Source of the DNA: Candidatus Woesearchaeota archaeon
Lineage (GTDB): Archaea > Nanobdellota > Nanobdellia > SCGC-AAA011-G17 > JACPIM01
DNA: 64,000 nucleotides
Direction: 5' to 3'
Assembly (NCBI GenBank): GCA_043817645.1
Contig: JBDRGP010000029.1
Coordinates: forward strand, 58,226 to 122,225
Below the pieces are notes generated by a model. The model was not told the DNA's origin. It did no database searches and saw nothing but the letters and a program-made list of their open reading frames with translations. The translations under genes were made by a program, and so were the position numbers. This document shows, piece by piece, positions 3,866-17,825 of this stretch (position 1 is its first letter; the number at the start of each line of letters is the position of its first letter).

Positions 3866-3964
3866 AGCAGAGTAGAACAGAATTGCCTTAAAGGTAGTGT
3901 TCAATCAGGAGTGTTCGCTGGGCTCATAACCCAGAGGTCGTTGGTTCAAATCCAACCTCTGCTA
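3866..3964 (+). tRNA. Initiator tRNA-Met (anticodon CAT, 3925-3927) with an apparent ~24-nt insertion in the D-loop (non-canonical intron)
   Basis: Folded by hand. The acceptor is agcagag/ctctgct with an A1:U72 pair. The D-stem is gaac(3875-78)/gttc(3913-16). The anticodon arm is ctggg-CTCATAA-cccag, with the GGG:CCC pairs typical of archaeal initiator tRNA. The T-arm is gttgg-TTCAAAT-ccaac and the discriminator is A. 34 nt lie between the D-stem halves, where 8-11 are expected. Confidence 0.65.
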
Positions 3965-13277: not shown

Positions 13278-14156
13278 GTGCCTAATTATAGCATGAAAGA
13301 TGCTATAAAATGTAAACATTGTTCAAGTTCGAACTTTTGCAAGAAAGGATTTAGAAAGACAGATTATCGAGGGAAAATTCAAAAATATTATTGTAAAAAC
13401 TGTAAGAGATTCTTTACAAATGATGAGGGGTTTTATAGAATGAGATTTAATCCTAAAACGATAACCATGTCTGTTGATATGTATTTATCAAATCTATCAT
13501 CAAGAAAGATGAGAAACCAATTAACAAGGCACTTCTCGATAAAAGCCAGTCACATGACTATACTAGACTGGGTTAGAAGATATAGCTTGAAAGTTCATAA
13601 GTTTGTTGAGAACTTAGGTTACAATCTTGGAAATCATTTTTATGCAGATGAAACGGAGATTAATAGATTAGGACACAGAGATAATTTCTGGGCTTGTGTT
13701 GATTGGGACACAAGAATGATAACAGGAATACATTACTCTGTTGCTACAAATATAAAAGAAGCAACAGTTTTCATACAGAAATCAGTTAGCAAAGGAAAAC
13801 CAAAATACATTCAAACAGATTCGGCTCAGTTTTACCCGAAAGCGTTCAAGAAATTATTTTATTCAAATAAAATTGGTGGCTTGGTAGTAGAGCATAAAAT
13901 ACAAAATGTTAGAAAAACTAAGATACATAACTATAAGATAGAAACCGTTTTCATGAAAATAAAAGATAGAGTCCATGATTTTAGGGGACTAAAGGCCTTA
14001 TGGTCTGCTCCAATAATCATGACTGGTTTAACAATACAGCATAATTTCATAGAACCTCATTGTAATAAACAAGAGTTTCCTTGTAACCTTGCTGGAGTTG
14101 ATTTAGGTTTAAAAGAAAACAGATGGTTGGATTTAATAAGGATGAGTTCACGATGA
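13278..14156 (+). CDS. IS6-family transposase (archaeal type with N-terminal zinc finger)
   Basis: 292 aa. The N-terminal CKHCSSSNFC...CKNCKRF is a Zn finger. The DDE region includes ADETEI, and length and organisation are typical of archaeal IS6. Confidence 0.7.
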   Translation: MPNYSMKDAIKCKHCSSSNFCKKGFRKTDYRGKIQKYYCKNCKRFFTNDEGFYRMRFNPKTITMSVDMYLSNLSSRKMRNQLTRHFSIKASHMTILDWVRRYSLKVHKFVENLGYNLGNHFYADETEINRLGHRDNFWACVDWDTRMITGIHYSVATNIKEATVFIQKSVSKGKPKYIQTDSAQFYPKAFKKLFYSNKIGGLVVEHKIQNVRKTKIHNYKIETVFMKIKDRVHDFRGLKALWSAPIIMTGLTIQHNFIEPHCNKQEFPCNLAGVDLGLKENRWLDLIRMSSR

Positions 14157-15235: not shown

Positions 15236-15283
15236 ATATATTTAAATACCCAAATTCCCATATTCTTAGTACAATGAAACGAG

Positions 15284-16471
15284 TTGATTGTTTTCATAAA
15301 TTCGTATTCTAGAGATTTTAATAGTTATAACTTTATTAAAAATCCCAAAAATAGTTTCCCCAAAAGTGGTCTAACCGTCAGAACGAAAACATTTAAATAT
15401 GCCAAAGTCTTTTATGAGTTTATGGAAAAAAGAGTGGTATTCCCAAAAGGGAAACAAAGGGAGTTTTTAGTCTCTTCAAGAAAAGAACTAAAACTAACCT
15501 GGCCGGAATTTGCTGAAAAAGTCGATACAAAAAGAAAAACTCTAGAAAAGGCCTATAGATATGAATATTGTTCGATGCCATATGGGGTTTTTTCTAAAAT
15601 AGTTAATGAAAGAAACATCAATAAAAAGAGACTTATTAGAGATTATAATATCAAAATAGTAAAAGGAAGTAGATATGGTGCAATTGGAAGGAAGGTGTTA
15701 GGAGAAAAAAGAGCGAAATTAGGCAATATCAACCTTTTATTTGAAAATTCTATACATCCATTTAACACTAGCGTTATAAAATTAAGCAAATATGATGAAA
15801 TTAAGAGAATAAAATTTCCAAATAAATTAACTCCAGAATTAGCTGAAGAAATCGGCATGCATATAGGAGACGGTTTTTTATCCAAAAGAAGGAACGAATA
15901 TCGTTTAAAGGGGAATAAAAATAACGAAAAAGATTACTACAAATACTTCATCAAAAAGCTTTACAAGACTTTGTTTAATTTAGATATTAATCTAAAAGAA
16001 TATGAATCGACATATGGATTTGAAATAAGCTCAAAAGGTCTCTGGACATTTAAAAATAAAATTTTGGGTATTCCATCAGGGAAAAAAGATGATATAGATT
16101 TGCCCGCAATTATAAAAGTGAATGACAAAGATATCCTAACTTCATTTATCCGAGGAGTTTTTGACACAGATGGTTGTGTTAACTTCAAAAGTGGATACGG
16201 TCTAAAGGGATATTACCCAAGAATAGAGATAACAATGCTCTCAAAAGATTTAATAGGGAGCATATCGGAGATATTATATGCATTGGGATTAAAACCATAT
16301 AAGCATCAAGATAAACTAGGATATTGGCATATTACTTTAAATGGCTATGAAAGATTTGAAAGATATAATAAATTAATAGGATGGCATAATCCCAAACACT
16401 TAAGAAAGATAAAAAAATGGAAAAAACAATATCCAAAATTAGGAAAGGATGTAATGGTAGGGGTAGTGTAG
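15284..16471 (+). CDS. Free-standing LAGLIDADG homing endonuclease (two LAGLIDADG motifs) with a ~180-aa N-terminal extension
   Basis: The motifs are IGMHIGDGFL and IRGVFDTDGCV. The last ~5 codons and the stop run into the 5' end of the tRNA-His gene. Confidence 0.7.
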   Translation: MIVFINSYSRDFNSYNFIKNPKNSFPKSGLTVRTKTFKYAKVFYEFMEKRVVFPKGKQREFLVSSRKELKLTWPEFAEKVDTKRKTLEKAYRYEYCSMPYGVFSKIVNERNINKKRLIRDYNIKIVKGSRYGAIGRKVLGEKRAKLGNINLLFENSIHPFNTSVIKLSKYDEIKRIKFPNKLTPELAEEIGMHIGDGFLSKRRNEYRLKGNKNNEKDYYKYFIKKLYKTLFNLDINLKEYESTYGFEISSKGLWTFKNKILGIPSGKKDDIDLPAIIKVNDKDILTSFIRGVFDTDGCVNFKSGYGLKGYYPRIEITMLSKDLIGSISEILYALGLKPYKHQDKLGYWHITLNGYERFERYNKLIGWHNPKHLRKIKKWKKQYPKLGKDVMVGVV

Positions 16472-16546
16472 CCTGGTTAGTTTTTACCCAGAAAACACGC
16501 AAGTCTGTGGAGCTTGAGATCGCGGGTTCAAGTCCCGCCCCTTACC
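16456..16546 (+). tRNA. tRNA-His (anticodon GTG, 16507-16509) with encoded G-1 and an apparent ~14-nt insertion in the D-loop
   Basis: Folded by hand. G-1 pairs with C73. The acceptor is gtagggg/cccttac, and the D-stem is gtgt(16466-69)/acac(16495-98). The anticodon arm is caagt-CTGTGGA-gcttg, and the T-arm is gcggg-TTCAAGT-cccgc. 25 nt lie between the D-stem halves, and the insert can form a gtttt/aaaac hairpin. Confidence 0.6.
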
Positions 16547-16568
16547 CGTTTTCAAAAAAGAGGTCAAA

Positions 16569-17825
16569 ATGAAACTTGAAAGATGTAAAGGAACAGTAGA
16601 TTTTCCACCAGAACAAAAAATAGCAAGAGAAGAAATAGTAAGTACCCTAACAAAAGTATTCAAAAAATACGGTTTTGACCCTTTAGAAACCCCAATTTTA
16701 GAGAGATATGATACCTTATCAGCAAATTACGCAGGAGGCGCAGAAATCCTTAAAGAAACCTTCCGATTGAAAGACCAGGGTAATAGAAGTTTAGGATTAA
16801 GATATGACCTAACAGTTCCTTTAGCGAGATTTATTGCAATGAATCCTCAAATTGCATTCCCATTTAAAAGATATCAAATAGAAAAAGTATTCAGAGATGG
16901 CCCAATAACAAGAGCAAGAATAAGGGAATTCTATCAATGTGACGTAGATGTAGTAGGAAGCAGATCTCTATCATACGATGCTGAACTAATCCAACTTTCT
17001 CTAGATGCCTTAAAAGCTCTAAAATTAAAATGCATCATAAAAGTAAATAATAGAAAATTACTAAATGAAATTGTAGATTACGCAGGAATAAAAAAGGATC
17101 CCAATTCAGTAATCTTAGTCATAGACAAATTATACAAAATTGGCAAAGAGGGCGTTGAAAAAGAATTAAAAGAACTAGGGCTAAAAGAAGAGCAAATTAA
17201 AAAAATCACAAAAACTATCTCAGTAAAAGGCACTAACAAAGAAAAACTAGAAAAAATCTCAAAAATAATAAACAAAGAGGGCATAAAAGAACTCAAAGAA
17301 GTTTTAAAATATTTCGAAAAAGATGTTGAATTTGATCCAACATTGGCAAGAGGCCTAGCTTACTACACAGGAACGGTTTTTGAAATTGTCTTAAAAAATA
17401 AAGACTTGGGCTGCAGTGTTGGCGGCGGTGGAAGATATGACAAAATGATTGGAAGTTTTGTTGGAAAAGGAGAAATTCCTGCTACAGGCATCTCATTTGG
17501 ATTAGAACCTCTAAGTTACTGCATAAGCAAATTAAGAAAAGGAAAAAAGACAAATACAGAATTATTCATAATACCTATAAAAACCACAGAAAAGTCCTTA
17601 AAAATTGCTAAGAAATTAAGAGATTCCAATATCAACACAGACATAGACCTAAATAATAGAAACATCTCAAAAAACCTAAATTATGCAAATAAAAAAGATA
17701 TCCCTTATGTTCTATTCATAGGAGAAAAAGAACTAAAACAAAAGAAATTCAAATTAAGAAACATGATCACAGGAAAAGAACAATTATTCACATTAGAAAA
17801 ACTAACAAAATATCTAAAAAACTAG
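16569..17825 (+). CDS. hisS: Histidine--tRNA ligase
   Basis: 418 aa. It has the class II aaRS motifs and RGLAYYTGTVFE; GGGRYD is present, plus a C-terminal anticodon-binding domain. Confidence 0.9.
   Translation: MKLERCKGTVDFPPEQKIAREEIVSTLTKVFKKYGFDPLETPILERYDTLSANYAGGAEILKETFRLKDQGNRSLGLRYDLTVPLARFIAMNPQIAFPFKRYQIEKVFRDGPITRARIREFYQCDVDVVGSRSLSYDAELIQLSLDALKALKLKCIIKVNNRKLLNEIVDYAGIKKDPNSVILVIDKLYKIGKEGVEKELKELGLKEEQIKKITKTISVKGTNKEKLEKISKIINKEGIKELKEVLKYFEKDVEFDPTLARGLAYYTGTVFEIVLKNKDLGCSVGGGGRYDKMIGSFVGKGEIPATGISFGLEPLSYCISKLRKGKKTNTELFIIPIKTTEKSLKIAKKLRDSNINTDIDLNNRNISKNLNYANKKDIPYVLFIGEKELKQKKFKLRNMITGKEQLFTLEKLTKYLKN

Follow-up and report, generated by a model that had tools for sequence, protein, structure and literature searches.

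Introns with a motif of the bulge-helix-bulge (BHB) type, including relaxed versions of it, are known from the D- and T-loops of tRNA genes (PMC6379350), and position 20/21 is among the known non-canonical intron sites of archaeal tRNAs (PMC4090602). As described before (Marck and Grosjean 2003; Sugahara et al. 2008; PMC4090602, PMC6379350), non-canonical introns of this kind can be short and lie in the D-loop, form a 4-bp central helix between exon and intron, place their splice sites in 3-nt bulges, restore the cloverleaf on removal, and cause standard tRNA finders to miss or mis-type the gene. In relaxed (HBh′-type) substrates only one splice site lies in a fully closed bulge, and broad-specificity forms of the splicing endonuclease EndA include (alpha-beta)2 enzymes, the epsilon2 enzyme of ARMAN-2 and alpha4 enzymes with an L3 loop in DPANN archaea (PMC3239211, PMC5829648). 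DPANN genomes with an L3-loop EndA have many disrupted tRNA genes, and their predicted tRNA sets are incomplete (PMC5829648). Here we analyse a 64,000-nucleotide stretch of a Candidatus Woesearchaeota metagenome-assembled genome (MAG; contig JBDRGP010000029.1, positions 58,226 to 122,225; hereafter the window), in which a tRNA-His gene with an insert in its D-loop stands immediately upstream of hisS. The insert is probably a 15-nt, protein-spliced BHB-type intron at the non-canonical D-loop position 20a/21 of a functional tRNA-His(GUG). It shares the features listed above for non-canonical and for relaxed BHB introns. It differs from the former in having a woesearchaeal (DPANN) rather than a crenarchaeal or Nanoarchaeum host, in a 3′ splice site that lies in a 3x3 internal loop closed by the D-stem, and in a length at the small end of their range.

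The locus is a tRNA-His(GUG) gene with all stems intact. It occupies positions 16456-16546 of the window (91 nt, forward strand, as for all features below unless stated), from an encoded G-1 through the discriminator C73, and CCA is not encoded. The acceptor stem, GTAGGGG (16457-63) with CCCTTAC (16539-45), has 7 bp, one being G.U. G-1 (G16456) stands opposite C73 (C16546), the form that archaea and bacteria encode in their genomes and a pair also found in the closest orthologues of this gene. Direct reading and the Rfam alignment gave the same anticodon arm, CAAGT-CTGTGGA-GCTTG (16500-16516), with a 5-bp stem, a 7-nt loop containing U33 and the anticodon GTG (16507-16509), and no intron at 37/38. 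AGATC separates it from the T arm GCGGG-TTCAAGT-CCCGC (16522-16538). The G+C content of the window is 33.5%. The D arm (16466-16498) consists of the stem GTGT (16466-69) and ACAC (16495-98) around a 25-nt loop (16470-94), AGCCTGGTTAGTTTTTACCCAGAAA, preceded by TA and GTGT and followed by ACAC and G. The original prediction, made from the letters of this stretch, had described a tRNA-His with an encoded G-1 and a D-stem whose strands are 25 nt apart, and every one of its positions and sequence statements on this gene proved correct on direct reading.

Our own BHB search called for a 4-bp helix with 3-nt bulges on opposite strands and a cut after the second bulge nucleotide. This cleavage rule was taken from relatives with canonical 37/38 introns (loci L081, L082, L084, L126 and L131), and at such introns the control run recovered strict hBHBh′ motifs in which the 5-bp anticodon stem is the outer helix. 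In the window the search found a relaxed motif at 16473-16494. Its central helix H pairs CTGG (16473-16476; C17, U17a, G18 and G19 of the D-loop) with the intronic CCAG (16488-16491), a strand placed by the BHB search and by folding. Two helices close the 5′ splice-site bulge TTA (16477-16479), H on one side and, on the other, a 2-bp inner helix of GT/AC (16480-81/16486-87) whose loop is TTTT, and the predicted cut falls at 16478/16479 (TT↓A, the arrow marking the cut). The 3′ splice site lies in the trinucleotide AAA (16492-16494), between H and the 3′ strand of the D-stem, with a predicted cut at 16493/16494 (AA↓A). The intron so defined, AGTTTTTACCCAGAA, spans 16479-16493, and removing 16480-16494 instead gives the identical product. 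Its deletion restores a canonical 76-nt cloverleaf with the D-loop AGCCUGGUUA (AGCCTGGTTA) and the predicted exon junction ...GCCUGGUU↓AACAC.... This register, together with the D-loops of intron-less orthologues described below, argues that the insert is a micro-intron, as originally proposed, with a length of 15 nt instead of the suggested 14 or so.

The unconstrained minimum free energy (MFE) structure of the precursor (ViennaRNA, -32.1 kcal/mol) holds the D-stem, the CUGG/CCAG helix and the acceptor stem, G-1:C73 included. Folded explicitly as a BHB, the precursor reached -30.6 kcal/mol, compared with -24.5 kcal/mol when the D-loop was left open. A gtttt/aaaac hairpin had been put forward as the signature of the insert. 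That complementarity exists (16480-84/16492-96), but a fold containing it reached -24.2 kcal/mol and the hairpin competes with the D-stem, so we rejected it as the relevant structure; the CUGG/CCAG helix is the defining one. When the 15 nt were shuffled with their composition preserved, H with 3-nt bulges fell in the right place in 5% of the shuffles, and in 0.7% when an inner helix of at least 2 bp was demanded as well.

HisRS relatives at 70-76% and 49-55% identity were placed on their contigs. In 9 distinct loci of such relatives, hisS was directly preceded by a tRNA-His(GUG) with G-1. Two orthologues are intron-less, with the D arms GTGA-AGCCTGGTTA-TCAT (L087) and ATGT-AGCCTGGTTA-ACAT (L128), and their D-loops are letter-identical to that of the window after removal of 16479-16493. 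A third, L131, has exons nearly identical to those of the window (GTGT-AGCCTGGCTA-ACAC-G-CAAGC...), including a normal D-loop that differs by 1 nt, and carries a 16-nt intron at 37/38. Across the series this gene shows five states. The window has its 15-nt intron at 20a/21 with a relaxed motif. Introns of 12-28 nt with strict motifs occupy 37/38 in L081, L082/83/88, L084/85, L126/127 and L131-134. A 13-nt intron at 59/60, in the T-loop, has a strict motif with the T stem as outer helix (L086, 280-369), and a 30-nt intron at 32/33 has a relaxed motif (L129/130; L129 2305-2407), with an 8-bp inner helix in L129. The fifth state is the absence of an intron (L087, L128). Apart from the letters that a BHB dictates, no sequence resemblance is evident among these introns, so transposition is not demonstrated. 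Closely related Thermoproteales genomes likewise differ in the presence and position of introns in one and the same tRNA, as set out in the account of their rapid turnover or transposition (Fujishima et al. 2010, cited in PMC4090602); by contrast, the five states here belong to a single orthologous gene in synteny.

The same design recurs in other tRNA bodies. A metagenome contig pattern with near-exact exons gave 0 matches, and the pattern TAGCCTGG-N22-45-CTGTGGA-N12-13-GGTTCRA, which leaves the insert unspecified, returned 37 loci. Among these, the D-stem closes around an enlarged loop in 10 distinct tRNA-His sequences, the window included. In nine of the ten, CCTG/CTGG of the D-loop forms a 4-bp helix with the insert's 3′ end, and exactly 3 nt separate this helix from the D-stem that comes next. 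Predicted splicing of these nine gives AGCCTGGT↓A or AGCCTGGTT↓A, that is, the D-loop AGCCUGGU(U)↓A. The tRNA-His bodies that hold the metagenomic D-loop introns differ widely (acceptors GCCACGA and GCCGAGG). Between L110 and L113 a change from CCAG to CCGG, the latter in L113, keeps the pairing as U.G, and members of the largest family have either CTTGT/ACAAG or CTTTTG/CAAAAG as inner helix, with complementarity preserved. In all 20/21 D-loop introns found, the 3′ site faces 2-3 nucleotides that have no partner: A14, G15 and, in some, C16. The idea of a lineage-specific intron class did not survive this comparison: position 20/21 is published and the design occurs in other tRNA bodies, so the class is not lineage-specific, and the closest orthologues have their introns at other sites or none. 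The metagenomic tRNA-His inserts at 20/21 are those of the L091 type, L106, L110 and L113; others lie at 26/27 (L089, L097, L105, L108 and L109), and L090 and L093 seem to hold two inserts, one at 26/27 and one in the T-loop.

Some observations weigh against a spliced 15-nt intron. The strict hBHBh′ form is not reached, as 0 bp of outer helix are contiguous with H and the inner helix has just 2 bp. At the 3′ site the AAA faces unpaired AGC (16470-72; A14, G15 and C16) in a 3x3 internal loop, and the motif therefore counts only as a relaxed BHB. At the 5′ site, a register with a 1x1 internal loop is favoured by the MFE, the margin being about 1.5 kcal/mol. Formally, 16474-16489 (H = GTAG/TTAC) is another BHB-like candidate; we rejected that register, which would remove G18 and G19 and conflicts with all orthologues. 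The endA gene of the host was not seen. Splicing, its exact junction and co-transcription with hisS are all inferred. The search for a second tRNA-His spans 64 kb only, a point that equally serves the first of the alternatives considered below.

The behaviour of tRNA finders bears on these alternatives. ARAGORN reports a tRNA at 16457-16547, but as a 91-nt tRNA-Gly(ccc) whose variable arm is long, whose position 33 is A and whose D-stem has mismatches. With its intron options (-i, -i0,40 and -ps) it never called tRNA-His on the native sequence, because its intron model covers the anticodon loop only. Any deletion of at least 12 nt in the D-loop region switches the call to tRNA-His(gtg), and the spliced sequence, lacking the 15 nt, is likewise called tRNA-His. 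Rfam gave no match at the locus at its gathering threshold; a sensitive local search yielded a partial tRNA match (26.1 bits, E = 0.0014, model positions 8-63; gathering score 29). With the same model, orthologues that are intron-less or have a canonical intron score 43-63 bits, and those with near-identical exons 50.9-63.3 bits. The locus, insert included, is 100% identical in ENA ERZ27247128 and NCBI GCA_018812805.1, making three assemblies with the window, and an assembly artefact is therefore unlikely. Together with the tRNA call of ARAGORN, the local Rfam match and the scan for T arms and acceptors given below, this identity shows that the locus is no chance resemblance to a tRNA.

A first alternative holds that the gene is a decaying or pseudo tRNA-His, broken by the insertion, and that a canonical tRNA-His elsewhere does the work. 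Besides the span of the search, it can call on the Rfam score below threshold (26.1 versus 29 bits), the mis-typing by ARAGORN and the mobile LAGLIDADG gene that abuts the tRNA. We nevertheless consider it improbable: every stem is intact, G-1:C73 included, the exons are near-identical to those of orthologues scoring 51-63 bits, and the site next to hisS is conserved in 9 distinct related loci. A scan of the 64 kb for perfect T arms with complementary 7-nt acceptors found exactly two tRNA genes, this one and a tRNA-Met, and neither the scan nor ARAGORN revealed a second tRNA-His in the window, intron-less or otherwise.

It is still less probable that the 15 nt are retained, giving a mature tRNA-His with a 25-nt D-loop and an extra mini-helix. 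Although the absence of a strict BHB agrees with retention, the extra helix would sequester G18 and G19, which are required for the interaction of D-loop and T-loop. In orthologues at this locus the D-loop is of normal size (10 nt) and identical in sequence, the register of the insert fits the BHB cleavage rule exactly, and the design recurs in tRNA-His genes with other bodies. We give as little credence to the view that the D-loop intron interrupts the target of the adjacent LAGLIDADG endonuclease and shields the host allele, the two forming a 'collaborative homing' pair. The LAGLIDADG gene does end 8 nt before the intron-bearing D-loop, and neither the gene nor a D-loop intron occurs in the closest HisRS relatives; however, other loci with the gene have a tRNA-His that is intron-less (L128) or has its intron at 37/38 (L126, L131), and in L129 no tRNA adjoins the end of the gene. 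Gene and D-loop intron do not co-vary, and collaborative homing was therefore rejected. The class-II-like, 91-nt tRNA-Gly(CCC) of the ARAGORN output, with an anticodon arm GTTTT-TACCCAG-AAAAC and the CAAGT...GCTTG hairpin as long variable arm, is effectively refuted by A instead of the near-universal U at position 33, a D-stem TGTG/GTTA with two mismatches, a fold about 8 kcal/mol worse than that of the tRNA-His precursor, the G-1:C73 pair, the GUG loop and the synteny with tRNA-His orthologues, and tRNA-Gly is not among the tRNAs with a long variable arm.

The second tRNA gene of the window also appears to be interrupted in its D-loop. It encodes an initiator-like tRNA-Met(CAT) at 3866-3964, with a perfect 7-bp acceptor AGCAGAG/CTCTGCT (3′ strand 3957-63) and the D-stem GAAC (3875-78)/GTTC (3913-16). 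The predicted intron has 24 nt and lies at 15/16 (3881-3904), with bulges AG↓A and AA↓T and a 7-bp inner helix. An intronic decoy, GTTC at 3899-3902, mimics the 3′ strand of the D-stem and pairs with GAAC 3875-78 as H. None of 20000 shuffles (0/20000) matched this motif, a relaxed BHB that is clearer than the one in tRNA-His, and splicing would yield a perfect 75-nt tRNA-Met(CAT) that has A1:U72 and an anticodon stem with GGG/CCC. ARAGORN and Rfam place the gene at 3893-3964 (38.2 bits), where the acceptor has a G.U pair and a mismatch; both tRNA genes of the window are thus mis-called because of their D-loop introns. The original prediction had put the inserts of tRNA-Met and tRNA-His at the same location. 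A D-loop insert in tRNA-Met is real, but the two sites differ (15/16 versus 20a/21). A search of the fetched loci for homologues of the initiator tRNA-Met gave nothing useful. About 2 kb from this tRNA-Met, at 782-1795 on the reverse strand, lies a gene for RtcA, the RNA 3′-terminal phosphate cyclase (Pfam RTC, E = 1e-68). RtcA is part of the RNA end-healing and ligation toolkit, and its presence is not diagnostic of splicing.

Downstream of tRNA-His, hisS (16569-17825) encodes a histidine--tRNA ligase (HisRS) of 418 aa (NCBIfam TIGR00442, 371.8 bits, cutoff 286.75) that is 100% identical to a Candidatus Woesearchaeota archaeon MAG protein at NCBI (P0001). The tRNA ends 22 nt ahead of the hisS start, as had been stated. 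The 22-nt spacer, CGTTTTCAAAAAAGAGGTCAAA (16547-16568), contains the Shine-Dalgarno-like GAGGT (16560-64) before the ATG at 16569, and it has neither a TATA-like sequence nor five or more T in a row. Such spacing, 15-25 nt with (A)AGAGGT, is usual in the related loci and occurs in L081, L082, L084, L086 and L087, and the HisRS identity of the relatives with a linked tRNA-His ranges from 49 to 76%. No tRNA precedes hisS in more distant loci (L001, L002, L003 and L006; HisRS 47-56%), an Aenigmatarchaeota MAG among them, so not all DPANN archaea have the linkage. A TATA site for hisS would fall in the G+C-rich T arm, so that hisS would most simply be expressed from the tRNA transcript. Judged by the conserved adjacency and the lack of room for a separate promoter, co-transcription of tRNA-His and hisS is likely.

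In E. coli, tRNA genes of the thrU-tyrU-glyT-thrT-tufB operon are co-transcribed with a protein gene. The arrangement is alike in that a tRNA lies directly upstream of an open reading frame (ORF) with no room for a promoter, such that 3′ processing of the tRNA would make the 5′ end of the mRNA. It is unlike in that the partner in the window is the cognate aminoacyl-tRNA synthetase, and in an archaeon. A full-text literature search of incomplete coverage found no description of a tRNA-His/hisS unit, which is weak evidence of novelty.

On the 5′ side, tRNA-His is abutted by a gene for a LAGLIDADG endonuclease of 349 aa (15422-16471; Pfam LAGLIDADG_3; P0121 is 100% identical). The last 16 nt of the ORF, including the stop codon TAG (16469-71), overlap the 5′ end of the tRNA, and the gene probably belongs to the same transcription unit as tRNA-His and hisS. 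About 150 homologues occur in MAGs of Woesearchaeota, Pacearchaeota and Nanoarchaeota, and among the 120 listed many C-termini are translated 5′ ends of tRNA-His (MVGVV, MADVV, MAVVVQWLEYGPVA...). We compared the loci L126, L128, L129, L131, L135 and L136 of this family. The LAGLIDADG gene stands directly 5′ of hisS in 5/5 contexts, and in 4 of them tRNA-His lies between and overlaps the end of the ORF; in L129 tRNA-His is upstream of the LAGLIDADG gene, whose stop codon overlaps the hisS start. The gene is absent from the closest HisRS relatives. In pairwise comparison the identities of the two proteins do not run parallel, LAGLIDADG proteins being 55-62% identical where HisRS is 45-55% and 67% where HisRS is 78%, which suggests mobility. 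The family is likely to consist of free-standing homing endonucleases with the tRNA-His locus as their specific site. It resembles archaeal intron-encoded LAGLIDADG enzymes, such as the rRNA-intron enzyme of PDB 2dch, in its two motifs (..GMHIGDGFL.. and ..GVFDTDGCV..) and patchy distribution. It differs from the 2dch enzyme in that sequence similarity is weak (E = 0.029) and in that the gene is free-standing and adjoins tRNA-His at its 5′ end, outside the mini-intron. A LAGLIDADG family associated with tRNA-His did not turn up in the literature searched; as coverage was incomplete, this speaks only weakly for novelty.

Two elements precede this gene in all loci that bear it. The first is a D-arm-like sequence, TGGTCTAACCGTCAGAACG (15367-85; compare TGGTCTAACGGTTATGACG in the tRNA-His of L086), which may be a relic of the 5′ half of an older tRNA-His broken by the cassette. 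The second combines a putative B recognition element (BRE) and TATA box, AAAAC ATTTAAATA (TTTAAATA; 15392-99), about 27 nt before the LAGLIDADG ATG, and may be the promoter of a leaderless mRNA. Coding N-terminal extensions of called LAGLIDADG ORFs were rejected: their ..KFKY.. corresponds to the BRE/TATA box and their NGVIVS to the D-arm-like DNA relic.

Further upstream, about 25 nt past a TATA at 15241-48, a micro-ORF encodes MKRVDCFHKFVF followed by a stop codon (15274-15312). Micro-ORFs with the consensus M-x-R-V-D-(C/F/Y)-(I/F)-H plus 1-8 codons, usually with a T-run downstream, lie upstream of tRNA-His/hisS in the window, L081, L082, L084, L086, L087, L126, L128 and L131. They are kept with or without the LAGLIDADG gene; the Arg codon varies synonymously (CGA, CGG or AGA) and the His codon is invariant. 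The micro-ORF may encode a leader peptide. About 1.1 kb upstream of the region of micro-ORF and LAGLIDADG gene lies an ORF for an IS240-type DDE transposase (13278-14156), and a similar transposase adjoins hisS in L086; their nearness to the two loci suggests a hotspot for mobile DNA.

Taken together, a course of expression can be proposed. A single transcript would run from the LAGLIDADG gene through tRNA-His and the 22-nt Shine-Dalgarno spacer into hisS, with 3′ processing of the tRNA making the hisS leader. In the precursor, C17-U17a-G18-G19 of the D-loop would pair with the CCAG at the 3′ end of the intron to form the central 4-bp helix, leaving the 5′ splice site UU↓A in a proper 3-nt bulge closed by the 2-bp inner helix. 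A14, G15 and C16 would be engaged in tertiary pairs such as U8:A14 and G15:C48, and with A14 and G15 so engaged the 3′ AAA would behave as a bulge. EndA, presumably of relaxed specificity, would then cut at 16478/79 and 16493/94, and an RtcB-type ligase would join the exons. RNase P would leave G-1 in place because it pairs with C73, and CCA would be added post-transcriptionally. Feedback by HisRS through binding of the precursor is conceivable, as pure speculation.

A broader reading, which we offer tentatively and hold to be rather doubtful as a whole, joins these elements. In Woesearchaeota and allied DPANN archaea, the tRNA-His/hisS locus would be the dedicated home of an undescribed mobile LAGLIDADG cassette and of very fast turnover of mini-introns. 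The cassette, free-standing and with its own BRE/TATA and leaderless start, would have inserted inside an old tRNA-His gene, leaving the D-arm relic upstream while its 3′ end enters a fresh tRNA-His 5′ end. The leaderless micro-ORF, with its His codon and T-run, might serve as a histidine-sensing leader for tRNA-His and hisS.

For annotation, the two tRNA genes of the window exemplify the 'missing tRNA' problem to which attention has been drawn in DPANN genomes (PMC5829648): the His gene is taken for Gly(CCC), and the Met gene is assigned the wrong 5′ end. The syntenic set of tRNA-His genes forms a natural series for the gain, loss and movement of protein-spliced introns with strict and relaxed motifs, and it also indicates the range of substrates with which the splicing endonuclease of DPANN archaea has to cope. 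Both the conserved tRNA-His/hisS unit and its attached LAGLIDADG family are leads that bear on the co-expression of a tRNA with its synthetase and on the targeting of archaeal tRNA genes by homing endonucleases.

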